IMG/VR virus record: IMGVR_UViG_3300033153_006754
Span: 1 to 63,727 of that record
Length of the DNA: 63,727 nucleotides
Source: a virus
Taxonomy: Duplodnaviria > Caudoviricetes
Reading direction: 5' to 3' (one strand)
The first letter of the stretch is position 1. Each line of letters opens with the position of its first letter. Under the pieces are notes generated by a model that had not been told where the DNA came from, did no database searches, and was given only the letters and a program-made list of their open reading frames with translations. Of this stretch, positions 2,271 through 53,743 are shown piece by piece. The position numbers were made by a program, and so were the translations under genes.

Positions 2271-2866
2271 GGACCAGCTCCCTTGTTGAAGTTCGGCTTT
2301 GGTTCACGAAGAGCGAAGGCACTGTAACGTTGCTCCTCAGTGCCCTCGCTGAACACGGTCTTCAGCCTTAGCTTGCCTGTGGAACCACCTCGTATAGAGT
2401 TTGAGTTGCTTACTACAACCACCTCCCACTCTCGTGGATCAGGGATCCTCTGGATGTCACTCAGTTCGAGCCTGACCTGTACAATGATGCGCCTTAACAG
2501 CTTCTGATGCAACAGTGTCTTCAGTCCCGGGTTGGCCTCCAGGTATTCCAGGTCAGTAGCTATTCCGGCTGAGTTCACAATATCGGACCAGCTGCTGATC
2601 TTGGTGTCAAGAAGCTTGCCAATGCGTACGTTAACAATGTCAATGGTACCGTTCCTGTGCAGTCCCCACCCCATCGAATCCTCACCAGGGAAGCTGCCAA
2701 GCTTCTGGCCTGGTAGTATGTTCCAGTTCCTGACACCATGTTCAACTGGATCAAACACTGGGCCACGGAAGATCGGTACCACGATCTCCTCTCCATGCAT
2801 CCCATGCTGGGCCTTCTTCTCAGGCCCAAGGTGAGATACCTGAGCTTGTTTCAGCATACCTTCCAT
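2249..2866 (-). CDS. Hypothetical baseplate-region protein
   Basis: 205 aa ORF overlapping hub stop codon (TAATG). Confidence 0.55.
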   Translation of the reverse strand: MEGMLKQAQVSHLGPEKKAQHGMHGEEIVVPIFRGPVFDPVEHGVRNWNILPGQKLGSFPGEDSMGWGLHRNGTIDIVNVRIGKLLDTKISSWSDIVNSAGIATDLEYLEANPGLKTLLHQKLLRRIIVQVRLELSDIQRIPDPREWEVVVVSNSNSIRGGSTGKLRLKTVFSEGTEEQRYSAFALREPKPNFNKGAGPWSTNSR

Positions 2867-28911: not shown

Positions 28912-29724
28912 CTAGAGGAGGGCGATGTTGATCCTCACGTATTGCGTGGCCTTGTTCACTGCCTGGTTCACGATGTACGCGTCCAGGTGACGGGGTACCC
29001 CGTCGTTTTCCATTCCGGTCAGCCCGAGACCGCGCACCGGGCGCTGGAGATGGGCTGCCGACCTCGAGTTTGACCCCGAGGGGATGGTGTCTTTGTACAG
29101 GATTCGACCGCAGATCAGTTCCACAGAGTCAGAGCCGTTCGTCCACTTGTCCGGAACGCCTAACTCTACCCCATCCGCCGCCGGCTTGACCAGGTTGCCA
29201 GCCTCAAAAGACTGACTCAGGTTGTCGCCGATGAGCGGGATCTCGATCTCGTAGTCACAGAGAATCGAGACAAAGGGTTGCAGCTCGTAGTTGACGAGCC
29301 GCTTCTCGATGCTTCCAGTGTACATGTTGTGCCATGCCCACCCGATGGGGTAATTGATGGCGATTTGCGCAGAGGATGATCCAGCGACACTGACCAGTGA
29401 CGGATCCGTCATGTCGGCAGAATCAATGTTAACTGTGTAGTTGACATCGCTAGCCGTGTAGGTCAGGGTTGCTGCTGAAGCACCCGCGCAAGGAACGATC
29501 ACTGGAAGTGATTCGATTGCGGAATCGATCGAGACAATCGTGCCTGCCAAGACCACCCACCACTCATTGTTGAACTTGTCCTCGAGCTTCACAGGTAGCC
29601 AGGACGCGGCCTTGGCTGCCTGATCCAACGCAGGACGGACACCTTGCGAGATCTCGTGGAACCGGTGCAAACCGGTACGATCGTACCCGCGGGCATCCTT
29701 GAGTGTTTTGGTGATATTGGGCAT
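28912..29724 (-). CDS. Head decoration / capsid-associated protein
   Basis: 270 aa between protease and MCP; RBS GGGAGG. Confidence 0.6.
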   Translation of the reverse strand: MPNITKTLKDARGYDRTGLHRFHEISQGVRPALDQAAKAASWLPVKLEDKFNNEWWVVLAGTIVSIDSAIESLPVIVPCAGASAATLTYTASDVNYTVNIDSADMTDPSLVSVAGSSSAQIAINYPIGWAWHNMYTGSIEKRLVNYELQPFVSILCDYEIEIPLIGDNLSQSFEAGNLVKPAADGVELGVPDKWTNGSDSVELICGRILYKDTIPSGSNSRSAAHLQRPVRGLGLTGMENDGVPRHLDAYIVNQAVNKATQYVRINIALL

Positions 29725-29787
29725 CGTTGCCTCCCGTAATTCAAAGGTTGATCTTCAATGTAGCTCCGAGCTACGTTAAAGTGGTAC

Positions 29788-39568: not shown

Positions 39569-42500
39569 CTATGCTGCCCTTGCTGCCATACGGGAACGGT
39601 TGCGATCTAGCTTGGGAACACTGTTCATGCCAGAGTAGCGTTCGATAACACTTCTAACGCGACTACCACGTCGTTGGTTCCACAGTACATTATTAACTAA
39701 CCCAAAGGTCGGTGTAAACATAGATATTGGCCGGCCGGCCTTCGGACTCGAGGTGATCTTCCGCTTGCTCTCTGTTATCTGCAGAGTTTTTGAATCAATA
39801 TCCTGACCCTGTATTGGGTTGTAGGCACCACCGAATGGAGTCATGTCCGGGCGTGCAGGATCCATACCATGGAACCTGTTGAACTGGTTCACAGGACCAC
39901 GCATACCCTGGATGCCACCCATCTGGTAGAGCATGGCAGGATCCATACTCATGCTAGGATCAGGATTGCGGCGCTTGCGTGCACCTAGTACTGCAGCTGT
40001 TGGATACCTTACTGCTGTAGCAGCAACTTCACCAAGAACAAAAGATCCAACAAGGTTGATGACCGCCGAACCAACGAATCCAAGTATTGCCCCACCAATC
40101 GTACCAGCAGGGCCAAGAGCAGAACCTGCAGCAGCAAGCTTGGCACCAGCTGCCAGCCAGAGACCAGGTCTGATCAAAGCGAAGGCGGCCATTCGAGCAG
40201 TACCAGCAGCAGTCTCAGTAATGAAACCCTTTGTGGCATTCTCGTATTGATCCATCAGGGAGTAACCTTCGATAGCACCCCAGGCAACGTTCATGTATGG
40301 AATCTTGCCAAGAGCTCTGCCAACGCCACTCTTGCCAAACTTGCTGATACTGGAACCAACCTTGGTAAGCCGCCTCATCTTGTCTACATGTGCGGTGAAC
40401 AATGGACTGTTCTTGTTGATGTCCTTTAAGCGCTTGCCTATGTTGGTGAAGACATTCTTGACTTCCTTCTTTGCCAGGAGTGACTTCTTGTCTATGACCC
40501 TGTAGGCAAGAGCCATTTCCTCCAGGCGGCCGAAGTTGGTGATGATATCTTTTACACCGGTCACCTTGGCCATGAAGCCCTGCGGGTTGGTGACAAGATT
40601 CTTGACATTCTCACTCAGAGCATGTGTGAACTGATCCCAGGCCAGGATCTTTTTGGCACCAACGAGTTTGTTTAGCTTACCCATCTTCTTCAGGCGTTGG
40701 ATCTCGTTGGCGTCAACTCCGTATGTCCAATGCTTGGACTTTGTGGCAATGCTCTTGAACCAATCCTTGACGTTGCCACTGGCATCCTTAGTTAGTTTGC
40801 TCTGCTTACTTTCGATGTAGTCCCACAGCTTCCCAGGTGCTTCTTTGATGGACTCCCAGGAGAACTTCTTGAGTATCTTGTCGAACCACCCGAGCTTGGT
40901 ATCTGCAACACTGGCTATGTTGGTGATGAACGAGGTGCTCATCTTGCGACGTCTCATCCATGCGTGTCTGGACATCTGGTCATACTTCATTGCCTTGAGA
41001 CCAGCTTTTACCTTTTTGCCAGCAACCTTACTTTCCCTCAACTGGTTCGGCGTCAACGTTTCAGCTGGGTCCAGGAGATGACCTGCCTTAACGAATGAGT
41101 CCCAGGCCTCGAGCATTGGATGCTTGTTAGGAGCCAAATAGCGCTCGAGGCCCATTACAACACCCTGCAGACCAAGGTGCTTCAGAGCCTCCCGCTTGTG
41201 GGCAGAGGCTGCCTCTTCAGCTGCCACACCCATGTTCTGGTGCTGGGCCCAGGCTCCAACCTTGTGGCTGGCTACGAAGTCTCCATGCGGCCGCATTCCC
41301 ATGAACTCCCGCGGGTGCCGCGGTGTGTCCATCATCCGCTCGCCGATGCCTTGCTCATCACCCTTGAGCATAGCCCAGGTGCCAATTGCGACTCCGGTAA
41401 GAACCAGAGCTCCAATGCCAGCAGCAGGACCAATACCGTGGTACCTGGATGAGGATGACTTCATGCCTGAGCTGGGTGGCACTGGAACATTGCGCGCCGG
41501 GATGGACCGGTCAACCACCTTGATAGCTTTGGGTGGTTTCGCTGTTGTGGTTGGTGTTGGCTTGCGTGTTGGTGACTGTGGTGGTTTGGCATGTTGTGCC
41601 TGGGCAGCATCATCCACTTGCTCAAGGTAAGCGTCCACATCATTGACATAGAAGCCATGGCCACCGTCTTTGTAGGTCTGGAATATGACGTCCCTGGCCT
41701 TGGCATCAGGGTATGCAGCAAGGGTACGTTTCGGGGTGTCAATGACCCTGTATTTACCAGTGGTGCTACTGTGTACGTACAGCTCACCAGTGCCTGTGTA
41801 TATGGGACCTACACCCTTACCCATGTTTACGGGAGTGGTGCGATGCAGGTCTGGTCTGGTACCCGATTCACCAGGATAATGGTTCACTGCTTGTGTAAGG
41901 TCAGGTCTGGTACCTGCACCCAACGGATCGGCACTGACCGGAGCACTCGGTAGCATCGGGGATGTGACTGCAATTGGAACAGACGTAGCGTTCAGATTGT
42001 TGACCGTGGTGTTCCATATGGTACGTGAATCAATTGGAGAAGATCCGTACCTCTCATTCACTGCTGACTGTACAGCAGTGATCTTGGCTCGGCCGGACGA
42101 GAAGTCAGAGACGTTGCCACCACGAACCTGAGTTGGCGTGATGCCAGATCCAACGATACTCCATGGAGTTACTGGACCACGGATGCCAGGCAGGAAGCCG
42201 GCGTTCTTGGTGCGCTTGTTTAGCCGGCCCATGGTCTCGGCCCTGTATGCCGAGCCGACCTGATACATGTCCTGGACTTCATCTGGAGTCCATGGTGAAC
42301 GGCTGCTGTCATGAGCGCGCTGGACCAGGCCATACCAATCGGACAACGCTGCACTACGCGTAATCCTGTCCAGGGAGGTCATGGTGGTGTTGGTGACCCT
42401 CTTGCCTGCAATGAGCCCCATGGCCCGGTGCATCTGCCAGCCCTTGGACTGCCACATGCCAATCTTGCCAGAGGCGGCTAGGGCTTCAGCACTAGCGTAG

Positions 42501-43750
42501 GCGTTGTGGTCAACGATCTGCCTCTTCCGACTCTGCCAGGGCAGAGCGGCAGCAGCACCACCACGAACCAGTTGGAGGTTAAGATTGGCGCGCCGATCGC
42601 CGATGAGCACGCCTACATGCCTGTTATAACTTCGTGAGCTAGGATCAAATACAAGCCGGAGGCTCTGCTGACGCTCGATCAGGTGCTCGAAGTACTCAGC
42701 ACCCTGCTTGCCAGCAAATTGATCCTCAGCTATACGCCCGGACATGCCCGGGTGCTCAACTTCAGGAGCATCGATGCCAGCCAGCCTGATGCTGACCGGC
42801 TTCTTGAACATGTTCATCAAGCCGCGGCGCTTGACAGTGATGGAGTCAGCATCGCTGACCTTAACGTGGTAGTTCTTCAGGTCGACCACGCCCATCCAGG
42901 CACTGCGGTTCAGCCCGGCTGTCTTGAGCCAGGAGCCCCTGGCCATGTCGTACTCACCGCGATGGAACAGCCGCCTGTTGGCGGACATCATCGCGCTGGT
43001 CCAGGTCTCGTGGCTCTTCTCAAGACTCTTGTAGCTTACACCGTCAATATCCGGGTATCGGATGTCGAGTGAGGACCTGTAGGCTGATAGTTCGTTGAAT
43101 CCTCTGGTGACAGGGTTCCCGAACCTGCGTCCGGACCCAAAGTCAGTCAGAGCTCGAGCTACACCACGGCCGCAGGGCCCGAAGCTGATGCCGTCAACCT
43201 CAAGGTAAGGCGAGTCACTGGGATCTCTAACACCCTTGAGCCTGGCCTGCTTCTCTGGTAGAGCAGCATCAGCTATGGTCATCCCGGCCAGAACCATGGC
43301 TGCAGCACGCAACTTCGGATGCCTGTTAAACCAGGGCTTATACTGGGTCCTCCAGGCGTCAGATATCTCGGCGCCGGCACGACTGTATATCTTCCTGAGT
43401 GTCTCTGGCTGACTGGCTAATGCGCGAGCTGTCGTCTTGGCACCAACGCGCTGGGCACTTATCTTGCTGGATAATGTTTTATCCAGAGATCTAAGTCTGT
43501 GGGATTCAGACCTGGTGACTTCGGTTGCCTTTTGGACTGGGTTTTTGATTGCAGGAGTTGGCTGTGTAGCAGCACGCAGATCCTGACGCATCTTCCTGAA
43601 GTACGTCTTCATTGCAGAAGTTAGACGCGCAGGGGAAGGTTCGGTACTTTGACTCTGGCGTGCCTTCTTTAAGTACTCCCTCACTGCCTTGACAACGCCT
43701 GGGCTGGGCTTTTGATAATCAGCCAACTGCCACTTCCTGCTCTTTAGCAC
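39569..43750 (-). CDS. Large basic virion/ejection-like protein with thermonuclease (SNase) domain
   Basis: 1393 aa; VSDADSI..IRLAGIDAPE..SYNRHVG..NLQLVRGGAA..KIGMW; C-terminal Gly zipper. Confidence 0.75.
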   Translation of the reverse strand: MLKSRKWQLADYQKPSPGVVKAVREYLKKARQSQSTEPSPARLTSAMKTYFRKMRQDLRAATQPTPAIKNPVQKATEVTRSESHRLRSLDKTLSSKISAQRVGAKTTARALASQPETLRKIYSRAGAEISDAWRTQYKPWFNRHPKLRAAAMVLAGMTIADAALPEKQARLKGVRDPSDSPYLEVDGISFGPCGRGVARALTDFGSGRRFGNPVTRGFNELSAYRSSLDIRYPDIDGVSYKSLEKSHETWTSAMMSANRRLFHRGEYDMARGSWLKTAGLNRSAWMGVVDLKNYHVKVSDADSITVKRRGLMNMFKKPVSIRLAGIDAPEVEHPGMSGRIAEDQFAGKQGAEYFEHLIERQQSLRLVFDPSSRSYNRHVGVLIGDRRANLNLQLVRGGAAAALPWQSRKRQIVDHNAYASAEALAASGKIGMWQSKGWQMHRAMGLIAGKRVTNTTMTSLDRITRSAALSDWYGLVQRAHDSSRSPWTPDEVQDMYQVGSAYRAETMGRLNKRTKNAGFLPGIRGPVTPWSIVGSGITPTQVRGGNVSDFSSGRAKITAVQSAVNERYGSSPIDSRTIWNTTVNNLNATSVPIAVTSPMLPSAPVSADPLGAGTRPDLTQAVNHYPGESGTRPDLHRTTPVNMGKGVGPIYTGTGELYVHSSTTGKYRVIDTPKRTLAAYPDAKARDVIFQTYKDGGHGFYVNDVDAYLEQVDDAAQAQHAKPPQSPTRKPTPTTTAKPPKAIKVVDRSIPARNVPVPPSSGMKSSSSRYHGIGPAAGIGALVLTGVAIGTWAMLKGDEQGIGERMMDTPRHPREFMGMRPHGDFVASHKVGAWAQHQNMGVAAEEAASAHKREALKHLGLQGVVMGLERYLAPNKHPMLEAWDSFVKAGHLLDPAETLTPNQLRESKVAGKKVKAGLKAMKYDQMSRHAWMRRRKMSTSFITNIASVADTKLGWFDKILKKFSWESIKEAPGKLWDYIESKQSKLTKDASGNVKDWFKSIATKSKHWTYGVDANEIQRLKKMGKLNKLVGAKKILAWDQFTHALSENVKNLVTNPQGFMAKVTGVKDIITNFGRLEEMALAYRVIDKKSLLAKKEVKNVFTNIGKRLKDINKNSPLFTAHVDKMRRLTKVGSSISKFGKSGVGRALGKIPYMNVAWGAIEGYSLMDQYENATKGFITETAAGTARMAAFALIRPGLWLAAGAKLAAAGSALGPAGTIGGAILGFVGSAVINLVGSFVLGEVAATAVRYPTAAVLGARKRRNPDPSMSMDPAMLYQMGGIQGMRGPVNQFNRFHGMDPARPDMTPFGGAYNPIQGQDIDSKTLQITESKRKITSSPKAGRPISMFTPTFGLVNNVLWNQRRGSRVRSVIERYSGMNSVPKLDRNRSRMAARAA

Positions 43751-45720: not shown

Positions 45721-45748
45721 ATGGTACACGGGCTGTGTGAGATGTCAA
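45721..45748 (-). promoter_or_regulatory. Sigma70-like promoter
   Basis: TTGACA-N16-TACCAT. Confidence 0.6.
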
Positions 45749-45820
45749 GCCCCCGGCCGGCATCGAACCAGCGACCTACGGTTTACAAAACCGTCGCTCT
45801 CCCAACTGAGCTACGGAGGC
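45748..45820 (-). tRNA. tRNA-Thr(TGT)
   Basis: Cloverleaf, loop TT-TGT-AA, no CCA. Confidence 0.9.
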
Positions 45821-45823
45821 ATA

Positions 45824-45897
45824 TGGTGGGGCTGGAAGGAATTGAACCCTCGACATTGAGGTTCGTAGCCTCACGTCCCGAGTCCACGGGCAACCCC
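45824..45897 (-). tRNA. tRNA-Arg(ACG), atypical D-arm
   Basis: Loop CT-ACG-AA, CCA. Confidence 0.8.
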
Positions 45898-45901
45898 GAT
45901 C

Positions 45902-45977
45902 TGGTACGCCCGGAGGGATTCGAACCCCCAACAACCGGTTTAGAAAGCCGGTACCCATCCAATTGGGACTCGAGCGC
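45902..45977 (-). tRNA. tRNA-Arg(TCT)
   Basis: Loop TT-TCT-AA, CCA. Confidence 0.88.
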
Positions 45978-46053
45978 TGGTATCCCCGGAAGGACTCGAA
46001 CCTTCATTCCAGGATTAGGAATCCTGTGTCCTGTCCGTTTGGACGACGGAGAC
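45978..46053 (-). tRNA. tRNA-Arg(CCT)
   Basis: Loop TT-CCT-AA, CCA. Confidence 0.9.
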
Positions 46054-46129
46054 TGGCACTGCGAGAAGGACTCGAACCTTCAACCGCCAGGTTCGGAACC
46101 TGGTGCTCTATCCGTTGAGCTACCGCAGT
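46054..46129 (-). tRNA. tRNA-Arg(CCG)
   Basis: Loop TT-CCG-AA, CCA. Confidence 0.9.
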
Positions 46130-46200
46130 TGGCAGGCCGTCGAGGTGTCGATCCCCGCTGGCGGGGGTTGGAGTCCCACCTGATCGCCGGATCACAGCCT
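46130..46200 (-). tRNA. tRNA-Trp(CCA), truncated D-arm
   Basis: AGG..CCT-G-CCA acceptor, loop CT-CCA-AC, T-loop ATCGACA. Confidence 0.75.
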
Positions 46201-46203
46201 ACA

Positions 46204-46275
46204 TAGATCTCCGAGGAGTCGAACCCACAACCTACTGGCTCAAAACCAGCCGTGCTACCATTACACCAGAGATCC
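46204..46275 (-). tRNA. tRNA-Gln(TTG), weak T-stem
   Basis: Loop TT-TTG-AG; T-stem GTGGG/CCTCG mismatched; no CCA. Confidence 0.65.
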
Positions 46276-46351
46276 TGGTAGGGGTGGAAGGGTTCGAACC
46301 TTCGACCTCTTGAGTCAGAGTCAAGCGTTCTACCAGTTGAACTACACCCCT
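46276..46351 (-). tRNA. tRNA-Gln(CTG)
   Basis: Loop CT-CTG-AC, CCA. Confidence 0.9.
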
Positions 46352-46355
46352 ATTT

Positions 46356-46425
46356 GCCGGCGTTCTGCCAGTTAAACTATGCCAAGGTTTCCCTCGGCAG
46401 TCGGGTTCGAACCGACACTTCCGGC
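46356..46425 (-). ncRNA. Circularly permuted tRNA mimic (YrlA-like T/acceptor/D module)
   Basis: GCCGG-AAGT-GTCGG TTCGAAC CCGAC-TGCCGAGG GAAA CCTTGGCA-TA-GTTT AACTGGCA GAAC-G-CCGGC. Confidence 0.8.
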
Positions 46426-46427
46426 GC

Positions 46428-46506
46428 TGGTCGGGCCAGGAGGATTCGAACCTCCGGTCTCCTGCTCCCGAAGCAGGCGGCAACGGCCAAGCTTGCCCAT
46501 GGCCCG
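46428..46506 (-). tRNA. tRNA-Pro(CGG)
   Basis: Loop TT-CGG-GA, CCA. Confidence 0.9.
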
Positions 46507-46584
46507 TGGTCGGGCGAGGAGGATTCGAACCTCCGATTTCCGGTCCCCCAGACCGGCGTCCACTCCAAACTGGACCGCCGCCCG
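46507..46584 (-). tRNA. tRNA-Pro(GGG)
   Basis: Loop CT-GGG-GG, CCA. Confidence 0.9.
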
Positions 46585-46588
46585 ATAA

Positions 46589-46667
46589 TGGTCGGGGTGA
46601 CTGGATTCGAACCAGCGAATCTCCTGCTCCCAAAGCAGGCGCCCTGGCCAGGCTGGGCTACACCCCG
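46589..46667 (-). tRNA. tRNA-Pro(TGG)
   Basis: Loop TT-TGG-GA, CCA. Confidence 0.9.
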
Positions 46668-46669
46668 TT

Positions 46670-46745
46670 TGGCTCCCCAGGTGGGGTTCGAACCCACAAC
46701 CTCCCGGTTAACGGCCGGGCGCTCTTCCACATGAGCTTCCGAGGA
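46670..46745 (-). tRNA. tRNA-Asn(GTT), C33
   Basis: Loop CC-GTT-AA, CCA. Confidence 0.88.
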
Positions 46746-46749
46746 TCAC

Positions 46750-46823
46750 TGGAGCCACCGGGTGGAATCGAACCACCATTTCATCCTTACCAAGGACGTG
46801 TTCTGCCGTTTAACTACGGCGGC
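46750..46823 (-). tRNA. tRNA-Thr(GGT)
   Basis: Loop TT-GGT-AA, CCA. Confidence 0.9.
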
Positions 46824-46826
46824 TTA

Positions 46827-46890
46827 TGGAGCGGGGACTGAAGCCGGTGCCAGCCCCAGAGATTAAGTCCCAGGATCGAGGGAGCCCCGC
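46827..46890 (-). ncRNA. tRNA-like element with Gly-type acceptor and CCA but no normal D/T arms
   Basis: GCGGGG...CCCCGC-T-CCA, 64 nt, central CT-TAA-TC loop. Confidence 0.55.
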
Positions 46891-46964
46891 TGGAGCCATC
46901 GGCCAGAATCGAACTGGCGTCTGCTGAGTACGAAACAGCTATTCTGCCCCTGAACTACGATGAC
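46891..46964 (-). tRNA. tRNA-Thr(CGT)
   Basis: Loop TT-CGT-AC, CCA. Confidence 0.88.
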
Positions 46965-46974
46965 AGTAGGAAGG

Positions 46975-47061
46975 TGGCGGAAGACGTAGGAGTCGAACCT
47001 AATGCCTCTCGACACGATCCGGTTAGCAACCGGTCCCCAGTCCACACCGAGTTCATCTTCC
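46975..47061 (-). tRNA. tRNA-Ser(GCT)
   Basis: Loop TT-GCT-AA, long variable arm, G-CCA. Confidence 0.85.
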
Positions 47062-47138
47062 TGGAGACCCCGGTCGGACTCGAACCGACTAAGGTAGGGT
47101 TTGCAATCCTACGCCTCGTCCACTTCGGCATCAGGGCC
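47062..47138 (-). tRNA. tRNA-Cys(GCA)
   Basis: Loop TT-GCA-AA, U73, CCA. Confidence 0.88.
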
Positions 47139-47228
47139 TGGCGGTGGGCGGAGGAGTCGAACCCCTGTCATATTTCAGACCGCACGGCTTTCGAGGCCGC
47201 CCCCAGTCCAACACCGGGGTCACCCACC
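47139..47228 (-). tRNA. tRNA-Ser(CGA)
   Basis: Loop CT-CGA-AA, long variable arm, G-CCA. Confidence 0.85.
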
Positions 47229-47236
47229 ATAACAAA

Positions 47237-47323
47237 CGGCAGGGCTGGGATTCGAACCCAGGAGACCTCTCAGTCTACACGCTTTCCAAGCGAGCGCTTT
47301 CAGCCGGACTCAGCCACCCTGCC
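47237..47323 (-). tRNA. tRNA-Ser(GGA)
   Basis: Loop TT-GGA-AA, long variable arm, no CCA. Confidence 0.88.
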
Positions 47324-47530
47324 AGTAGGGTAATAGGTAGGAGAGGCCTCGTCTGGCCTCCCTTCTCCGAGTGCCTTATGATCGGCAACACGAAGAGGGG
47401 AAACTTCGCGCATTGGGCCAGCGCCGGGTCGTTCGACCCAGCTGCTGTCTCCTTCGTTGGAGTGTTGTGCGAAGCATCGAGAACCTCTTATTGCGTACCG
47501 GCGCTAAAGGCCGGCGATGAATATATTCTC

Positions 47531-47558
47531 AGTGTACAGATGCCGAGAACGAAGTCAA
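47531..47558 (-). promoter_or_regulatory. Sigma70-like promoter
   Basis: TTGACT-N16-TACACT. Confidence 0.7.
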
Positions 47559-47566
47559 GTACTTTC

Positions 47567-47643
47567 TGAGGTGAACGGAGGGATTCGAACCCTCTCCTCG
47601 AGAGTCACAATCTCGTATGCTGACCACTTACACCACATTCAAC
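47567..47643 (-). tRNA. tRNA-His(GTG)
   Basis: Loop TT-GTG-AC, G-1:C73, ends TCA. Confidence 0.88.
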
Positions 47644-47718
47644 TGGTGACCCAGGCAGGAGTCGAACCTGCGTTAAGGAGTTATAAGCTCCCCGTTCTAG
47701 CCGTTGAACTACTGGGCC
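47644..47718 (-). tRNA. tRNA-Ile(TAT)
   Basis: Loop CT-TAT-AA, A73, CCA. Confidence 0.88.
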
Positions 47719-47761
47719 GCAACGTTCAGCTGCGGCTTGATATTCGTTCGTGTTCCATCTA

Positions 47762-47833
47762 TAGCGGGGAGGGGAATCGAACCCCCGAGACCAAGGTTAT
47801 GAGCCCCGGCTAAGCACCAACGCTTGCCCCGCG
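47762..47833 (-). tRNA. Initiator-type tRNA-Met(CAT), atypical
   Basis: CGCGGGG start with C1:U72 mismatch, loop CT-CAT-AA, compact D-arm. Confidence 0.8.
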
Positions 47834-47840
47834 TCACTGA

Positions 47841-47913
47841 TGTCCTCGCTGGGATTCGAACCCAGACTCGACTGTATTTAAGACAGCTGGCTTTGCCGTT
47901 AGCCTACGAGGAC
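47841..47913 (-). tRNA. tRNA with TAA (Leu) anticodon and short variable loop
   Basis: Loop CT-TAA-AT, 5-nt variable region, A73. Confidence 0.82.
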
Positions 47914-47926
47914 AGCTGATTCCTGC

Positions 47927-48010
47927 TGGTACCGGAGACAGGATTCGAACCTGCAAGCCTTTCGGCGGTGCGTTCTGAGCGCACTGCGTTTACCATTTCA
48001 CCACTCCGGC
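47927..48010 (-). tRNA. tRNA-Leu(CAG)
   Basis: Loop CT-CAG-AA, long variable arm, CCA. Confidence 0.9.
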
Positions 48011-48095
48011 TGGTGCCCAGGGTGGGAGTCGAACCCACAAGCCGCAAGGCACATGGCTCTCAACCATGCGTGTTTACCTGTTTCACCACCTGGAC
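48011..48095 (-). tRNA. tRNA-Leu(GAG)
   Basis: Loop TT-GAG-AG, long variable arm, CCA. Confidence 0.9.
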
Positions 48096-48099
48096 ATTC

Positions 48100-48184
48100 T
48101 GGTACGGAAGGTGAGATTCGAACTCACACGCCTTGCGGCACAGAGGTTTGAGCTCTGCGCGTCTACCTGTTCCGCCACTCCCGC
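48100..48184 (-). tRNA. tRNA-Leu(CAA)
   Basis: Loop CT-CAA-AC, long variable arm, CCA. Confidence 0.9.
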
Positions 48185-48187
48185 TAC

Positions 48188-48259
48188 TACGGCCACGGAG
48201 AGTTGAACTCCGGTCTCCGGGGTGAAAACCCGGTATCCTTGCCACTGGACGACAGCCGC
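48188..48259 (-). tRNA. tRNA-Glu(TTC)
   Basis: Loop TT-TTC-AC, no CCA. Confidence 0.85.
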
Positions 48260-48262
48260 TCA

Positions 48263-48334
48263 TACCCCTACAGAGAGTCGAACTCTGGTCTGCTGGATGA
48301 GAACCAGCTATCCTTGCCACTAGACGATAGGGGC
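48263..48334 (-). tRNA. tRNA-Glu(CTC)
   Basis: Loop TT-CTC-AT, no CCA. Confidence 0.88.
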
Positions 48335-48412
48335 TGGTAGGCCCGGTCGGACTCGAACCGACATGACCCCTGCGTGTAAAACAGGTGCTTGGCCAAGTTA
48401 AGCTACGGACCT
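48335..48412 (-). tRNA. tRNA-Val(TAC)
   Basis: Loop TT-TAC-AC, CCA. Confidence 0.9.
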
Positions 48413-48477
48413 ATGCGGAAGCGTCACCGGACTACGCACGTGTGGAAGCACGGAACGTAGCACCCGGCTCAGCTTCC

Positions 48478-48553
48478 TGGCGGGACTCACGGGGATCGAA
48501 CCCGCAACCTCCGGATCGACAGTCCGGCGCTCTTCCAATTGAGCTTCAGTCCC
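48478..48553 (-). tRNA. tRNA-Asp(GTC)
   Basis: Loop CT-GTC-GA, G-CCA. Confidence 0.9.
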
Positions 48554-48558
48554 GTTTC

Positions 48559-48634
48559 TGGTGGATAACGGTGGGACTCGAACCCACAACTCCTGGGTGC
48601 AAACCAAGTGTGTTCCCAATTACACCACGCTCCC
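48559..48634 (-). tRNA. tRNA-Ala(TGC) with bulged acceptor
   Basis: Loop TT-TGC-AC, G3:U70, extra A in 3' acceptor strand, CCA. Confidence 0.8.
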
Positions 48635-48711
48635 TGGTGGACCCTGTCAGAGTCGAACTGACCGCCTCCTGCGTGCAAAACAGGCGCTCTACCCAGATGA
48701 GCTAAGGGCCC
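48635..48711 (-). tRNA. tRNA-Ala(TGC)
   Basis: Loop TT-TGC-AC, G3:U70, CCA. Confidence 0.9.
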
Positions 48712-48722
48712 ATATGTAGTAT

Positions 48723-48797
48723 TGGTAGCCCCGGAGGGAGTTGAACCCTTCGTTTGCGGTTTATCAGACCGCTGTTCTGCCGTTGAACTACGGAGCT
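48723..48797 (-). tRNA. tRNA-Ile(GAT)
   Basis: Loop CT-GAT-AA, CCA. Confidence 0.9.
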
Positions 48798-49021
48798 TCT
48801 TAGTTGAGGTCTCGAGGAAGTTTGGAGAAGACTTGCGGGAGACCTCAGCGTCGGTTACGCCGCGATCTCCATAATATCCAGAACGGCGGCGCCCACGACG
48901 ATGTCGTGTTCTAGGTGAAGTCGTATGTGTAACTTCTGCCGCTGCACTTCTGGTCTCCAGTTATAGGGGACGCCGGCACGGGGTCTTTACAGCCCGTACC
49001 GACGTCAGGTTCGATCCGTAT

Positions 49022-49309
49022 TTAGTGTACGGATGCCAGCACAAAAGTCAAGTTCAATCTGCCAACTTTTACTGTCTCGCCGTCAATCACCTTCCGGAAC
49101 AGCCGTGGCTTGTTCTTCTTCACTTGGCTGGTGCTGGGGAAGAGGCCCAGCTCAACTAGAGCTCGAGCTAAGAATGACTCGTCTGTTCGCACAATCATAT
49201 CTGCCTTCGGTAAGGTGTTGTTGTTAAGGATCCCCTTCACGAGCATGATCGCTTCGCGTACGGGGAGCTCCCATGATGCAACTACTGCTGGCTGTAAGAT
49301 CTCAATCAT
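49022..49309 (-). CDS. Small protein with S4-like RNA-binding motif
   Basis: 95 aa; LARALVELGLFPSTSQVKK..TVKVGR resembles the TyrRS C-terminal S4 domain. Confidence 0.55.
   Translation of the reverse strand: MIEILQPAVVASWELPVREAIMLVKGILNNNTLPKADMIVRTDESFLARALVELGLFPSTSQVKKNKPRLFRKVIDGETVKVGRLNLTFVLASVH
49024..49051 (-). promoter_or_regulatory. Sigma70-like promoter
   Basis: TTGACT-N16-TACACT. Confidence 0.7.
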
Positions 49310-49386
49310 TGGTGTGGGTACAGGGATTCGAACCCTGACTGCCAGCTTGGAAGACTGGCGTGCTGGCCGTTGAACACTACACCCAC
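49310..49386 (-). tRNA. tRNA-Gly(TCC) with U2:A71 and A73
   Basis: Loop CT-TCC-AA; GTGGGTG/TACCCAC-A-CCA. Confidence 0.85.
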
Positions 49387-49410
49387 AAATTCAAGGGACT
49401 GCATTAGATC

Positions 49411-49620
49411 TCATTCAACCACTTCCAGTATAGCCTCGAGCCCTGATCCTTCTGGGCTGAGCTTGACTAAAGGCCTGGACCTTATGACCTCAGCAATCTC
49501 ATCAGTGATATCGGGACCACCGATCTCACAAGTACCGTCCGGTCCTGTCTTGGCCGTGATGAAACCGTCCTTGAGCTTGATGAAGAACGTTGCCATTGGA
49601 GTGCCTATGGAAACTTTCAT
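49411..49620 (-). CDS. Hypothetical 69-aa protein inside tRNA array
   Basis: ORF filling the gap between tRNA blocks. Confidence 0.5.
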   Translation of the reverse strand: MKVSIGTPMATFFIKLKDGFITAKTGPDGTCEIGGPDITDEIAEVIRSRPLVKLSPEGSGLEAILEVVE

Positions 49621-49669
49621 TAGAGGCCCTCAAAAAGGTTATTGATCTATTGGACATTATATCAACTAA

Positions 49670-49743
49670 TGCCCCCGGTAGGATTCGAACCTACATCTAT
49701 CCGGTTAAAAGCCGGATGTTCTACTCCATTGAACTACAGAGGC
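49670..49743 (-). tRNA. tRNA-Lys(TTT)
   Basis: Loop CT-TTT-AA, no CCA. Confidence 0.9.
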
Positions 49744-49745
49744 TC

Positions 49746-49820
49746 TGGTGGGCCGAAAGAGATTTGAACTCTTATCTAACGGATTAAGAATCCGTCGCTC
49801 TACCATTGAGCTATCGACCC
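49746..49820 (-). tRNA. tRNA-Lys(CTT)
   Basis: Loop TT-CTT-AA, CCA. Confidence 0.9.
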
Positions 49821-49824
49821 ATGC

Positions 49825-49898
49825 TGATGCGGGCAGATGGAGTCGAACCACCGTCGACTGTGATCAGCAGTCTGCTCTACCACTGAGCTATACCTCAC
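49825..49898 (-). tRNA. Atypical tRNA with GAT anticodon (possible pseudo-tRNA)
   Basis: Loop CT-GAT-CA (C37), 3-nt variable loop, bulged acceptor, ends TCA. Confidence 0.6.
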
Positions 49899-49982
49899 TG
49901 GTGCGCCGGGTTGGAGTCGAACCAACACAGTACTAGACGGGTGGGTTACAGCCACTTGAGCTCACCAATGCTCAGCCGACAC
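49899..49982 (-). tRNA. tRNA-Tyr(GTA)
   Basis: Loop CT-GTA-AC, long variable arm, CCA. Confidence 0.88.
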
Positions 49983-50056
49983 TGGTGGGCCGAGATGGAA
50001 TCGAACCATCATTACCGCATCTTCAGTGCGGCGCTCTACCACTGAGCTACCGACCC
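49983..50056 (-). tRNA. tRNA-Phe(GAA)
   Basis: Loop CT-GAA-GA, CCA. Confidence 0.9.
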
Positions 50057-50059
50057 AGA

Positions 50060-50130
50060 AGCGACTGGAGAGAATCGAACTCTCGTGTCCAGCTTGGGAA
50101 GCTGACGCTTTACCACTAAGCTACAATCGC
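50060..50130 (-). tRNA. tRNA-Gly(CCC)
   Basis: Loop TT-CCC-AA, canonical GCG..CGC-U, no CCA. Confidence 0.9.
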
Positions 50131-50136
50131 GTTAGT

Positions 50137-50210
50137 TGGTGTGGCTGGCGAGAATCGAACTCGCATTGCCTGCGTGGCGGGCAGGTATCTTACCGTTGGA
50201 TCACAACCAC
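50137..50210 (-). tRNA. tRNA-Gly(GCC) with U2:A71, A73 and C33
   Basis: Loop CC-GCC-AC; GTGGTTG/CAGCCAC-A-CCA. Confidence 0.83.
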
Positions 50211-50348: not shown

Positions 50349-50930
50349 TTAGGATAAAAGACTCAACTCCATGGAGCAGTGCTCATCGGGACCCAGCTTA
50401 TCAAGATCTTCAACGCACTGAACCTTGAACCACTCGTGGACGTATGCGATCTTCCAACAGCCATTGGCAGCAATGAGGTTGAACACAGTATCACCGAAGT
50501 CATTGGCTGAGCGAGTGTGTATGTAGAGGCGGGACGTCATCCTGCTAAGGTCAGTGAGTATGGAGTCCAGGTCATGATGCTCGAGGTGTTGCAGCACCAG
50601 AGATACCAGAACTGAGTCAAAGGTCATAGTCCGGACCGCTTCCCAGTTGCTCTCCAGCACAACGTTCGAAGGTATTGAACCCAGCCCCTCTTCCACCAGA
50701 CTCAGCATGCCTTCAAAGTCGTACCCAACGACCTCATCTGCTCTAGCCGCAAGCTCCTTCAGGTTCCGGCCTACTCCACACCCGAAGTCCAGCACACGAT
50801 TGCCGAAGGACGCACGTTGCATCAATCCAATGTCCGCCGGCAATGGTCCTTCTCTAGATCCCCATCCTGATAGAACGCGCTCCCTAGCTGACTTCAAGTC
50901 TCCAGGATCACGCCACTTGTCATATCTCAT
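50349..50930 (-). CDS. Class I SAM-dependent methyltransferase
   Basis: 193 aa; RVLDFGCGVGR, FDSV..VLQHL. Confidence 0.88.
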   Translation of the reverse strand: MRYDKWRDPGDLKSARERVLSGWGSREGPLPADIGLMQRASFGNRVLDFGCGVGRNLKELAARADEVVGYDFEGMLSLVEEGLGSIPSNVVLESNWEAVRTMTFDSVLVSLVLQHLEHHDLDSILTDLSRMTSRLYIHTRSANDFGDTVFNLIAANGCWKIAYVHEWFKVQCVEDLDKLGPDEHCSMELSLLS

Positions 50931-51184
50931 GGTCTGTACTCGTACCCAGATAGCTTGGAATCACGCTCAACCACCAGCGTCTCTTCGCAGTATTCGCCAC
51001 CAGGTGGGACCTCTTCGGCGTGCTTCATGAGGAACTCCTCACTGATCTTGATCTGTATGCCACGCTTTGACTTGCCGGGGATGGTGCTCTTCACCCAGAT
51101 CCTGACAACGTCCCGGCTTCGATCGAACTCTGCGTCCAGCTTCAGTTGCGGTGTCAGTTGAATGCTGCCTGGGCCGATGTTCAT
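50927..51184 (-). CDS. 85-aa protein containing two reordered MCP-like segments
   Basis: KRGIQIKISEEFL and AEEVPPGGEYCEET match MCP KSGLKVRITDEMI and AEDIPPGGEYPEQS. Confidence 0.7.
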   Translation of the reverse strand: MNIGPGSIQLTPQLKLDAEFDRSRDVVRIWVKSTIPGKSKRGIQIKISEEFLMKHAEEVPPGGEYCEETLVVERDSKLSGYEYRP

Positions 51185-51244
51185 TTGAGTGCCCTTCCAA
51201 AAGTATGGAGTGGAGGTTCTTTACCTCAGTGATGTGGTAGAGCT

Positions 51245-52189
51245 TCATGGTCGCACTGCAAAGACGTCTATCTGGAACGGGCGGTTATCAGGCAGATCAC
51301 CAATGGCCTGCATCTCATTGTCACCAGTGATAGCTAAGGGTTTGTATCCAAGATCCCTGAGCATGTTCATGTACTGGTTGGGACTGCAGTTTGACACCTT
51401 ACGCAGCTGGTCTCGGTGGACCTCGGTAATGATGGGCGGGTACTTGTGGCGCTTGAGGAACTGTCGGCCACCTTCAATGACCAATGGCTCAGCGCCCTCA
51501 ACATCCATCTTGATGAAGCTGACTCCTTGACCCTGATCCTCAATCTGAAGAGCGTCGAGCGGATACACCTGAACGGTAGCGGCCGTGTGGTTCGGAGGTG
51601 GCTCTGTACCCAACTCCGCCAGATAGGCACCACCATGGTTGATGGTGTCCGGGGCGTAGATGAGGTTGAGCTTTGATTCCGAAGCACCGACCGCCTCGTT
51701 CAGGCAACAGACGTCACCCATGTCTGGATGGTCCCTACGCAGGTTCTCCCTGACCGTACGATCCAGGAGTGAGTAGACGTGAGGCATTGGCTCGTAGGAG
51801 AGCACAGTGCCTTTTGATCCAACCATCCTGGCCATCTTGATCGAGAAGTAACCAACGTTGGCTCCGATATCCAGTACGTGAGTTCCGGGCTGTATCCACT
51901 TCTTCATCAGGTTGAGGACGTGAGGCTCATACTTGCCCTGGAGGATCCCGCGACCAATGAACTGGTCGTTGAGGTCGATCCAGAACCGGTCCCCATCGGT
52001 ATCCTCAACCATGACGATACTGTTCCCAGCTTCCTTGCTCTTCTCCTTGAACTCAGTGGACGCCATCAGGGAGTCCCTCAGGGTCTTCATGTCGCCGCAT
52101 CCCATCTTCTCTTCCATCACGGCAGAGTTTTCGGGCATGCGTTCAAAGAGGACCTTGTAGGCCCAGATGACGTCTTGCTGAGTGAGCAT
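51245..52189 (-). CDS. FkbM-family methyltransferase
   Basis: 314 aa; LDIGANVGY, YEP, IKMDVEGAE; short N-terminal AYK.LF.R.PE helical domain. Confidence 0.9.
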   Translation of the reverse strand: MLTQQDVIWAYKVLFERMPENSAVMEEKMGCGDMKTLRDSLMASTEFKEKSKEAGNSIVMVEDTDGDRFWIDLNDQFIGRGILQGKYEPHVLNLMKKWIQPGTHVLDIGANVGYFSIKMARMVGSKGTVLSYEPMPHVYSLLDRTVRENLRRDHPDMGDVCCLNEAVGASESKLNLIYAPDTINHGGAYLAELGTEPPPNHTAATVQVYPLDALQIEDQGQGVSFIKMDVEGAEPLVIEGGRQFLKRHKYPPIITEVHRDQLRKVSNCSPNQYMNMLRDLGYKPLAITGDNEMQAIGDLPDNRPFQIDVFAVRP

Positions 52190-52923
52190 TATGATTCCAC
52201 CACTCGGACCATATGATGGTCTTCTTCAAGAGGCTCACCGGTGAGGGCCTCAATGACCTCCTTGGAGAAGGTGTACTCACCTTTCTTCAGGTTATACGTT
52301 TGGCCCTTATTGTGTTGGTACACTTTGTGGTAACCCCTGCCCTTGATCCACCCGACCACGTCTTCAGCATGGTAGGTGTAGTTGTCCTCAGTGGTGATGT
52401 CGTCGATTGAAACTCCGCCACCTCTCTGGATAATATCCACGTTCCGGATGACGAGCCAGGCGTCGACGCCGTACTCATCGATTGACTGGAGGACGATCCC
52501 GCCGAGCTTGATGGGGAGGTGGGGCCACATGCTCTCCTCATTGACGATGGAGAGGATGGTGCCGACATACCCACCAATGTTCCAGTCAGTGTTGCCCCAG
52601 GAGATGCCTTGGACGAAAGGAGCTGGGTTGATGATCCTGGGTTGGTCCCCGCGCTCTGGACTGACCAGGAGGGCCTCAGTGTCGACGCCACAGAAGGACC
52701 ATCTGGTGTGCTTGCCAGGAGGCTTCTCGAACTCCTGGTCCTCCTTGAGGTCCTTCCCCCAGTCGAAGGGCTTCTTGGTAACGATCTTGCTGCGCTCTGA
52801 CCTGAGCTTGTACAGAACTCTGGATGCGTCCTTGATGCGACGATTGACATCGTCCATCTTGGCCTTATTGTCTGGGTCGGCCGCTTCGGGGCCTCGGTCC
52901 GGGCTTGAAGGGTTCTCCGTCAT
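52189..52923 (-). CDS. Orphan tail-tube homolog lacking the long beta-hairpin
   Basis: Start at MTENPSS (RBS AGGAGG), 244 aa; 26/50 identity to the tube C-terminal segment. Confidence 0.78.
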   Translation of the reverse strand: MTENPSSPDRGPEAADPDNKAKMDDVNRRIKDASRVLYKLRSERSKIVTKKPFDWGKDLKEDQEFEKPPGKHTRWSFCGVDTEALLVSPERGDQPRIINPAPFVQGISWGNTDWNIGGYVGTILSIVNEESMWPHLPIKLGGIVLQSIDEYGVDAWLVIRNVDIIQRGGGVSIDDITTEDNYTYHAEDVVGWIKGRGYHKVYQHNKGQTYNLKKGEYTFSKEVIEALTGEPLEEDHHMVRVVES

Positions 52924-53089
52924 TGTACTTCCTCCTGAGTCGTTTGATCTCCTTCTCCAGTCCAGCGGACATAAGAGAAGTGAGCGTGACACTTTGGTCG
53001 TGCTCGTGATATTGCAGGAACGCTACTGCGGCCCTGGCCTCCGCTAGGAGAGCATCATCGACGTTATGTGTGGTTCGAACTTTTGACAT
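52865..53089 (-). CDS. Ribbon-helix-helix / ParB C-terminal-like DNA-binding protein
   Basis: 74 aa; TTHNVDDALLAEARAA..LEKEIKRLRRKYNDGEPF..GRP. Confidence 0.6.
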   Translation of the reverse strand: MSKVRTTHNVDDALLAEARAAVAFLQYHEHDQSVTLTSLMSAGLEKEIKRLRRKYNDGEPFKPGPRPRSGRPRQ

Positions 53090-53286
53090 AGTTCAACCTG
53101 TTCGTTGTTATTGAAGGCGATTGCTTCAGAGTATCCTCTGGGGCTCATGAGTATCGTGTTAGGCTGGAACTGCTGCTTGGTCAGCATATCGTACATACGA
53201 TCCAGGTCAGCAAGCTGCATGCTGGCAGACTTGTTCTGTCTCAGGGCCAGATCCACAACATGGTGTGTAAGAAACAAGGGGTTCAT
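53044..53286 (-). CDS. 80-aa MCP-fragment protein
   Basis: 13/30 identity to MCP ITLDDLFVMYADLLNVGFIPNVLLMNPMGW. Confidence 0.72.
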   Translation of the reverse strand: MNPLFLTHHVVDLALRQNKSASMQLADLDRMYDMLTKQQFQPNTILMSPRGYSEAIAFNNNEQVELCQKFEPHITSMMLS

Positions 53287-53534
53287 TAGTAGCCTGCAGC
53301 CTCTCTACCGACGTCGGTGCAGAACCACCCGTAGCCCATCCATTGTGGATCGTATATCCACTTAACCAGGCCGGCCTTCTTCATCCGTCTCAGGGTAGAC
53401 AGCACAAGTCTGGCTTTCCTTTGGAGCCTGCGCTTTCGGGCCCATGCGGTCCGAGCCAAGTGTCCAACACGAACTGGTGTTGCCTGCTTGGCCAAAGCTG
53501 TTAGCACAGTAAGGTCCTTGCCTTGTAACTTCAT
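53286..53534 (-). CDS. Basic winged-helix-like protein
   Basis: 82 aa; LRRMKKAGLVKW..GW.CTDVGR. Confidence 0.55.
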   Translation of the reverse strand: MKLQGKDLTVLTALAKQATPVRVGHLARTAWARKRRLQRKARLVLSTLRRMKKAGLVKWIYDPQWMGYGWFCTDVGREAAGY

Positions 53535-53743
53535 TCTCTCACACTCACAGATTCAGGAAACTTCGGTGTCAAGATCCCACTAGCCTTGATGTCGACCCTG
53601 GGATCGTTCCATTCCCCAGGTATGGCTCCAGTACCCATCTGCCATCTGATGCCGCTCACTGTGACATCCATTGGAGGCCCACCACAGCCATCGCAGCTGT
53701 TGAGACCGGAGTTGAACCTGCCACAGTATTTACATTGCCACAT
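53531..53743 (-). CDS. Zn-ribbon fused to MCP C-terminal fragments
   Basis: 70 aa; WQCKYC..CDGC then WQMGTGAIP and WNDPRVDIK. Confidence 0.75.
   Translation of the reverse strand: MWQCKYCGRFNSGLNSCDGCGGPPMDVTVSGIRWQMGTGAIPGEWNDPRVDIKASGILTPKFPESVSVRE

Follow-up and report, generated by a model that had tools for sequence, protein, structure and literature searches.

What does a phage gain from an 85-amino-acid protein that carries pieces of its own major capsid protein (MCP) in the wrong order, encoded about 22 kb away from the head module? The gene for this protein (P0002, hereafter the miniprotein) lies in a 63.7-kb fragment of a jumbo myophage (an IMG/VR virus record, ∼31% complete), and this whole stretch of DNA is referred to as the window. 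In addition to the features below, the window encodes four proteins of 1393 to 2123 amino acids.

22026 to 23408, tail sheath
27453 to 28844, minus strand, MCP, 463 aa, HK97 fold (Pfam PF25209 Phage_capsid_4, E 6.1e-17; PHROG major head protein, E 1e-21)
28912 to 31911, protease/scaffold genes of the MCP
32278 to 34323, portal
36168 to 38120, terminase
45748 to 50210, 35 tRNA genes
50349 to 50930, minus strand, class-I SAM-dependent methyltransferase (Pfam Methyltransf_25, E 6.6e-9; Methyltransf_11, E 1.5e-8)
50927 to 51184, minus strand, miniprotein gene, 85 aa (ORF listing and translation)
51245 to 52189, minus strand, FkbM-family methyltransferase, immediately upstream of the miniprotein gene (Pfam Methyltransf_21, E 3.3e-17; PHROG methyltransferase, E 4.3e-24)

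The miniprotein gene is almost certainly real. It belongs to a tightly packed minus-strand block (54525 to 50349) in which stops and starts overlap and which adjoins the tRNA array, and its start codon is supported by the conservation of the N terminus among homologues. A preliminary description of the locus had placed the gene between two methyltransferases, and the Pfam assignments agree with this placement (class-I SAM-dependent at 50349 to 50930, FkbM type at 51245 to 52189). The miniprotein stop shares a 4-nt overlap with the start (ATG) of the downstream methyltransferase gene, for which the best PHROG is labeled "tRNA methyltransferase" (E 2.5e-7).

That description had also matched two miniprotein motifs to the MCP, and both matches were borne out. 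Motif 1, AEEVPPGGEYCEET (residues 56 to 69), agrees with AEDIPPGGEYPEQS (MCP residues 153 to 166) at 9 of 14 positions. Motif 2, KRGIQIKISEEFL (residues 40 to 52), has 4/13 identities with KSGLKVRITDEMI (MCP residues 181 to 193), the remaining positions being mostly conservative as judged by eye. The positions of the motifs in both proteins confirm that their order is swapped relative to the MCP. In a BLASTP comparison of the miniprotein with the MCP, motif 1 was retrieved with 9/15 identities (28.1 bits; pairwise E 2e-5), and motif 2 was absent from the output. With the miniprotein as query in an all-versus-all BLASTP of the 59 window ORFs, motif 1 reached an E value of 0.006, and background high-scoring pairs in this comparison scored 26 to 27 bits. 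Motif 1 alone is thus only borderline once multiple testing is allowed for. At the nucleotide level, 31/45 and 20/39 positions of the two motifs are identical to MCP DNA, which is no more than the protein identity implies; the miniprotein is therefore not a recent copy of the MCP.

Three capsid segments in a conserved family

Profile-profile comparison by hhalign of the miniprotein family alignment (A3) with an alignment of 63 MCP relatives (A4) yielded three separate matching segments, whose order in the miniprotein is exactly the reverse of that in the MCP (3-2-1). They are given below with their MCP counterparts, all on the minus strand.

51086 to 51169, minus strand, hairpin segment, residues 6 to 33, matching MCP 386 to 413 (P-domain hairpin and turn; 27606 to 27689); hhalign E 8e-5
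51026 to 51073, minus strand, K-x-G...I-S-E-E-x-L segment, residues 38 to 53, matching MCP 177 to 192 (last E-loop return strand and short helix; 28269 to 28316); hhalign E 4.7e-8
50972 to 51022, minus strand, V-P-P-G-G-E-Y segment, residues 55 to 71, matching MCP 152 to 168 (E-loop tip region; 28341 to 28391); hhalign E 2.5e-7

Among 60 MCP alignments with shuffled columns, none reached the three hhalign scores (29.7, 39.7, and 41.3); the highest shuffle scores were 17.4, 13.0, and 21.5. Reversed MCP alignments likewise fell short of the real scores. When a six-member family profile was run against the 59 window ORFs by hmmsearch, the MCP was retrieved at an E value of 3.5e-9, with the next ORF at 0.92. 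HMMER placed its three matches at MCP residues 153 to 167, 177 to 198, and 395 to 416, the last of these covered by profile positions 14 to 35. The family profile matches equivalent places in the MCPs of other phages, and its hairpin segment also matches the C-terminal region of the MCP of Moorella phage MTATph1.

These controls bear on the reading in which short motifs of an unrelated small protein resemble the MCP by chance. Such a reading would suit motif 1 taken by itself, which merely tops the all-versus-all background (28.1 versus 26.9 bits for the next unrelated pair), but it is already contradicted by the shuffles of three independent segments, by the HMMER result, and by the recurrence of the match when remote members of the family or MCPs from other phages are compared. 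We consider chance extremely unlikely and regard a genuine relation between miniprotein and MCP as very nearly certain.

The miniprotein belongs to an unnamed family of seven sequences, comprising P0002 and six homologues (P0003 to P0008) of 78 to 186 amino acids from other uncultivated phages. A word-indexed search found a single homologue, P0003 (88 aa, 65% identical to P0002). A HMMER search of 1.84 billion representatives with the resulting two-sequence profile added P0004 (122 aa; E 8.8e-7) and P0005 (126 aa; E 5.5e-5), and a profile built from four sequences then brought in P0006 and P0007 (both 78 aa) and P0008, whose 186 aa include an insertion. P0004 to P0007 are 28 to 34% identical to P0002 in alignment A3. 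The preliminary description had proposed a homologue search and held that its reading would fail if the P-P-G-G-E-Y motif were lacking; P-x-G-G-E-Y is kept in all six homologues, in the P-P-G-G-E-Y form in four of them, and K-x-G is kept in 6/6. The reading thus survives this check. Invariant columns of the six-sequence alignment are M1, R24, K40, G42, E50, P60, G62, G63, E64, and Y65, which, the start aside, lie almost entirely within the MCP-like motifs. Alignments A2 and A3 display the family signature of a hairpin with an R-D turn, a K-x-G strand with an E-E-x-L helix start, and P-x-G-G-E-Y.

The distant members are closer to the MCP family than P0002 is. Around G-G-E-Y-P-E, P0006 and the window MCP share 10 of 11 positions. 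When family members were compared with the window ORFs by BLASTP, P0004, P0005, and P0006 each matched all three MCP places, and P0007 matched two of them. A further match, of the C-terminal helical extension of P0004 and P0005 to the MCP spine helix (E 1.6e-4), was rejected, as it is driven by GGEYPE and the helix confidence is low. On the MCP side, P-x-GGEYPE occurs in 74/121 family sequences, the window MCP included. The three MCP segments are conserved above average (0.66 to 0.74 versus a mean of 0.56), yet they are not the most conserved MCP blocks; thus, the part kept in the miniprotein is a particular piece of the fold and not simply its most conserved portion.

P0005 and the MCP relative P0124 each come from just one known contig, in both cases 3046 bp long, and the longest contig is 87333 bp for both P0008 and the MCP relative P0010. 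Judging from equal contig sizes alone, the miniprotein family likely co-occurs with the MCP family, and P0005 likely lies nearly adjacent to a capsid gene. The best match of every family member is the clade of MCPs with 65 to 78% identity to the window MCP and not P0124; P0005 matches its presumed contig partner poorly (rank 102 of 120). That all members best match one MCP clade is consistent with a single origin; co-variation is not apparent. We consider that the miniprotein probably arose from a duplicated MCP gene through deletion and rearrangement rather than by convergent mimicry.

No miniprotein homologue was detected in the complete genomes of MTATph1 and 0305phi8-36 at the sensitivity used, and the INPHARED phage collection gave neither a DNA nor a tblastn match. 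In IMG/VR, no locus was found for P0002, P0005, or P0008, and a back-translated P-P-G-G-E-Y-P-E pattern retrieved only two MCP genes. Two metagenome scans gave no confirmed match, GTDB genome contigs gave no small-protein relative, the ESM Atlas gave no usable match, and four genomes with related MCPs gave MCP matches only. The miniprotein and the FkbM methyltransferase are missing from three related fragments (G001 to G003), which are only 4 to 43% complete.

Structural models and a possible interface mimic

The nearest named relatives of the window MCP are those of the jumbo myophages Moorella MTATph1 (37% identity) and Bacillus 0305phi8-36 (32% identity). Its AlphaFold model (mean pLDDT 74.8) gave 355 Foldseek matches in the PDB at E ≤ 0.001; HK97 gp5 ranks second and fifth, and the top 50 matches listed are all HK97-fold shells; a PDB sequence search with the MCP profile retrieved nothing meaningful. 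The preliminary description had assigned motif 1 to the E-loop and motif 2 to the following P-domain strand, and the model supports both assignments. MCP residues 153 to 167 fall in the loop between strand 141-147 and return strand 169-187, and, from the model and general fold architecture, the E-loop hairpin spans 141 to 187 with the P-P-G-G turn near its tip. Residues 181 to 193 take in helix 188-193 and the last part of the return strand (178-187), and the stretch from 178 to 193 leads into the spine helix (198-225). By the same combination of model and general architecture, the P-domain hairpin comprises residues 386 to 419, with the P-loop as its turn.

The miniprotein model (mean pLDDT 78.9, pTM 0.61; six-row alignment) has strands at residues 6-11, 14-21, 26-33, and 42-48, a helix at 49-55, and an ordered nonhelical tail, for whose first 15 residues the block-mean pLDDT values are still 81 (residues 51 to 60) and 76 (residues 61 to 70). 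In the two models, the first three strands correspond to MCP strands 386-401 and 406-419, and strand 42-48 with helix 49-55 corresponds to MCP strand 178-187 with helix 188-193. The E-loop-tip segment is nonhelical in both, its MCP counterpart being coil 148-168. Secondary structure predictions for the two proteins agree element by element.

The miniprotein is not a member of the MCP family. Against the HK97-fold MCP family model (PF25209/PF05065), it has no match over the fold and only three short local matches. The complete fold is absent, with no segment aligning to MCP 198 to 385 (the spine helix and most of the A-domain), and the elements are not collinear with the MCP (386-413, 177-192, 152-168). 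Nor does it have a permuted topology of the BPP-1 type, which, as defined in PMC3863775, involves the whole Johnson fold in N-beta-alpha order; only P-domain and E-loop pieces are present.

General searches likewise assigned no family. The miniprotein has no Pfam family and no PHROG at E ≤ 1, and a PDB sequence search with its family retrieved nothing meaningful. Pur-alpha was the best structural match in both Foldseek (8chu_B, E 0.041) and VIA (3n8b_B, Z 5.6, rmsd 2.8 over 61 residues). Both programs depend on sequence order, and a re-ordered P-domain is undetectable by them. As an observation in its own right, such sequential fold searches give only generic beta-meander-plus-helix matches, which counts against a mini P-domain.

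These matches are the starting point for a different reading, in which the miniprotein is a nucleic-acid binder (Pur-alpha/PC4-like, beta-beta-beta-beta-alpha, for RNA or single-stranded DNA) or an activator of the translationally coupled methyltransferase, its MCP ancestry being irrelevant to its present job. The Pur-alpha and PC4-like hits (Foldseek E 0.04 to 0.2, TM up to 0.53) fit this reading, as do the 4-nt overlap with a class-I methyltransferase whose best PHROG is a tRNA methyltransferase and the 35-tRNA array next to it. However, the structural scores are at the noise level of the library (the typical best VIA Z for unmatched models is 7 to 8), Pfam and PHROG give no match, and P0005 presumably shares its contig with an MCP gene. 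The reading also leaves unexplained why the family-invariant residues are those held in common with the MCP. On balance, we consider a nucleic-acid or methyltransferase partner unlikely.

Our preferred explanation, to which we assign a probability of about 0.5 as a whole, is that the miniprotein is a conserved, rewired mosaic of the phage's own MCP that acts by mimicry of an inter-subunit junction. The chain runs from the P-domain beta-hairpin and turn through the E-loop return strand and first helix turns to the E-loop-tip peptide (V-P-P-G-G-E-Y). In the predicted structure, this would form a four-stranded antiparallel sheet as the counterpart of the P-domain sheet in the MCP, and the tip peptide would lie on or beside it. 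The 3-2-1 order should be geometrically compatible with the same sheet, since strand directions come out alike whichever edge such a sheet is traced from.

For HK97-fold capsids, it is established that the E-loop and P-domain segments are inter-subunit contact surfaces (PMC5701804 and PMC6775164), in line with the preliminary description, and the same may apply to the window MCP. In HK97, a bond at the three-fold interface joins Lys169 of the E-loop to Asn356 in the P-loop of a different subunit (PMC5701804). The miniprotein would thus unite both partners of the junction in one chain. Miniprotein Y65 and D25 were equated with the HK97 cross-link pair by eye only, the MCP-HK97 gp5 alignment not being significant. 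Direct alignments of the MCP with HK97 gp5 (NC_002167) were rejected: the hhalign and Smith-Waterman scores were reached by 294/500 and 41/500 shuffles, and the alignments fell in the wrong places.

Tentatively, and at somewhat less than even odds, we propose that the miniprotein mimics the E-loop/P-domain junction on the capsid pathway. Its tail may occupy the E-loop docking site on MCP P-domains, or the mini P-domain may capture free MCP E-loops. Either way, it could serve as an assembly chaperone or cap, or as a filler where an MCP partner is missing; the miniprotein itself is not a capsid shell protein. Complex prediction with the MCP scored 0.00 twice (mark 0.32; alignments of 63 rows for the MCP and 6 rows for the miniprotein) and weighs neither way on binding.

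Several observations count against a role on the capsid pathway. The gene lies ∼22 kb from the head module and shares its operon with two methyltransferases next to the array of 35 tRNA genes, an atypical setting for an assembly factor. Family members do not track the MCP presumed on their own contig, the three segments fall outside the most conserved MCP blocks, and the gene is missing from MTATph1 and 0305phi8-36.

Neighboring reading frames with capsid pieces

Two further ORFs of the same minus-strand block resemble the MCP. Together with the P-domain hairpin segment and the conservation of the family, they go beyond the two motifs of the preliminary description.

53044 to 53286, minus strand, second MCP-mosaic ORF, 80 aa, residues 21 to 62 matching MCP 254 to 303 (A-domain helix and strand)
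53531 to 53743, minus strand, third MCP-mosaic ORF, 70 aa, two CxxC pairs, residues 31 to 43 matching MCP 445 to 457 and residues 42 to 55 matching MCP 396 to 409, in swapped order

When the MCP profile was run against all 1236 open frames of the window, the 80-aa ORF (E 4.4e-5) was the sole match below an E value of 1 besides the MCP. It aligns to the MCP by hhalign with an E value of 1.1e-6 and 38% identity, and it also matches the MCPs of two related phages. For the 70-aa ORF, BLASTP gave 8/11 identities with the MCP, and hhalign gave E values of 1.2e-3 (445-457) and 6.8e-4 (396-409), with either score reached by 0/60 shuffles. No homologue and no IMG/VR locus was found for the 80-aa and 70-aa ORFs. 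The neighboring ORFs of 82, 74, 260, and 267 amino acids have no MCP match, and a candidate match of ORF 49022-49309 to MCP 107-122 (E 0.047) was discarded as not significant. The 267-aa ORF (52189 to 52992) is a paralogue (E 8e-14) of 21293-22000 and 20459-21235, the two genes following the tail sheath gene.

In transcriptional order, the MCP pieces are 445-457 and 396-409, then 254-303, then 386-413, 177-192, and 152-168, all forward-oriented. This is a nearly perfect descending MCP order; by a rough, post-hoc count, 6/720 orders are this near monotone. It could be produced by tandem amplification followed by deletions.

An arrangement of this kind might be expected if the small ORFs were functionless debris, the remnants of an old, scrambled extra MCP copy. 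Three ORFs within 2.8 kb bear different MCP pieces in almost perfectly descending order, and two of them have no homologues found. In the case of P0002, however, six homologues, down to ∼28% identity, retain its size class, start, motifs, and predicted fold, and this speaks for selection. All of these ORFs are also intact and tightly packed with overlapping neighbors, and the DNA under the miniprotein motifs lacks residual similarity beyond the protein level. We therefore consider debris very unlikely.

The same neighborhood invites another reading, in which the miniprotein, the two mosaic ORFs, and the tail-module paralogue imitate virion epitopes and blunt host immune receptors as anti-sensor decoys. 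All three ORFs with MCP pieces and the 267-aa paralogue share one minus-strand block outside the structural module, with a promoter-like site upstream (54561 to 54533) and no terminator-like site on the minus strand within 54525 to 50349, both being weak, consensus-level signals. Sensing of MCPs and tail tube proteins by bacterial STAND and Dsr receptors is documented (PMC13581612). A fragment that keeps the recognized surface could equally trigger the sensor, though, and among these ORFs conservation across phages is known only for P0002. No MCP-fragment decoy was found in the literature searched, including the passages on decoys and mimics in a 2026 countermeasure review (PMC13728456). These points make the decoy reading improbable in our estimation.

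A broader version would see an operon of "self-mimic" miniproteins made from scrambled capsid pieces, which, with the tail-protein paralogue, would act as soluble stand-ins for virion surfaces, e.g., as immune-receptor decoys. The descending order would be the scar of a whittled-down capsid-gene amplification, and the 70-aa ORF would be a zinc ribbon bearing the C-terminal motif and the P-loop. We regard this joint reading as speculative and quite improbable.

Significance and comparison with known systems

If the mini P-domain reading is true, nature would have supplied in the miniprotein a minimal model of the E-loop/P-domain junction by which HK97-type shells are held together. Its size would suit NMR or crystallography, and it would offer a natural tool to probe or block capsid assembly. 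If the decoy reading is true, it would represent a new kind of counter-defence. Either way, the phage itself would be mining structural genes for new small proteins. The miniprotein is compact, conserved, and directly testable and is thus of considerable interest.

The closest comparison is with the MCPs of the 0305phi8-36/Moorella MTATph1 type (PF25209), which have the three segments in common with the miniprotein. These segments carry the invariant or near-invariant residues K179, G181, E189, E161, Y162, and D405 of the MCP family. In contrast to these MCPs of ∼460 amino acids, the miniprotein has 85, lacks the A-domain, spine helix, and N-arm, and bears the segments in reversed order. The T4 vertex protein gp24 is a full-length MCP paralogue with a complete HK97 fold that builds pentons. 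Paralogues of the gp24 type are likewise extra capsid-derived genes kept alongside the MCP; the miniprotein is instead a three-piece mosaic.

Small decoration or cement proteins, such as lambda gpD and P74-26 Dec, sit at the E-loop/P-domain/three-fold region and add a strand to the E-loop sheet (PMC6775164 and PMC5701804). Unlike the miniprotein, they are unrelated to the MCP in sequence and fold, and no PHROG, Pfam, or PDB-sequence match links decoration or cement families to it. Pur-alpha and PC4 have four strands and a helix in the order predicted for the miniprotein and are its best yet weak structural matches, with scores at noise level and 8 to 13% sequence identity.

Extra full-length capsid protein copies are already known, as is one version of the HK97 fold with its elements re-ordered. 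In the literature searched, we found no description of a conserved miniprotein built from three non-adjacent capsid segments in reversed order, and none of the family libraries searched matched it. The re-ordered version is that of the BPP-1 and epsilon15 MCPs, which demonstrate that HK97-fold elements can be re-ordered in sequence with the same three-dimensional arrangement (PMC3863775, in its account of these capsids). Those are complete capsid proteins in which two large elements are swapped, whereas the miniprotein is a rewired one-fifth or so of the fold and, unlike the permuted MCPs, stands beside an intact, normally ordered MCP.

MCP-like pieces in two further small ORFs

Pieces resembling the major capsid protein (MCP) were also found in two small ORFs:
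53044-53286, minus strand: 80-aa ORF with an A-domain-like MCP piece (hhalign and HMMER)
53531-53743, minus strand: 70-aa ORF with two CxxC pairs and two MCP-like pieces (profile alignment and shuffles)

In the 80-aa ORF, residues 21-62 align with MCP 254-303, an A-domain helix and strand (hhalign E value of 1.1e-6; HMMER E value of 4.4e-5). Among the 1236 open frames of the window, this ORF was the sole match besides the MCP itself below an E value of 1, and it also matched the MCPs of two related phages. A search of IMG/VR for homologues of the 80-aa ORF retrieved none.

In the 70-aa ORF, the two CxxC pairs are followed by W-Q-M-G-T-G-A-I-P, which resembles the C-terminal motif of the MCP (445-457), and then by W-N-D-P-R-V-D-I, which resembles the P-loop (MCP 396-409); the two pieces stand in swapped order relative to the MCP. 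The score of each piece was reached by none of 60 shuffles (0/60 each). A variant of this ORF (69/70 identical) is carried by a second contig.

When the MCP-like pieces of these two ORFs and of the 85-aa miniprotein (50927-51184, minus strand) are pooled (50972-53653, minus strand), they follow an almost perfectly descending MCP order along transcription, and every piece is in forward orientation.

Neighboring genes and the tRNA array

Other features of this part of the window are as follows:
52189-52992, minus strand: 267-aa ORF in the miniprotein operon, paralogue of 21293-22000 and 20459-21235 (minus strand)
52865-53089, minus strand: 74-aa ORF overlapped by its neighbors at both ends
45748-50210, minus strand: array of 35 tRNA genes

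The two paralogues of the 267-aa ORF (BLASTP E values of 8e-14 and 0.003, respectively) follow the tail sheath gene. This family, phrog_9206, bears the PHROG label "major head protein," but the position of the two paralogues suggests that they may be tail tube-like proteins. The 74-aa ORF weakly matches the C-terminal centromere-binding domain of ParB (E value of 2.6e-4, below Pfam's cutoff). The tRNA array spans most amino acids and is interrupted by a 95-aa ORF (49022-49309), the N terminus of which bears a weak, nonsignificant likeness to MCP 107-122 (E value of 0.047). Four very large ORFs (2123, 1619, 1482, and 1393 aa) lie in the structural region (2866-18544 and 39569-43750, minus strand).

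Two other regions of the MCP

In the MCP (27453-28844, minus strand), residues 306-351 are rich in glycine, proline, and glutamine and were modeled with very low confidence. Residues 1-121 form a helical N-terminal region in the structure model, and these ∼120 residues recall a scaffold or delta domain fused to the capsid protein.
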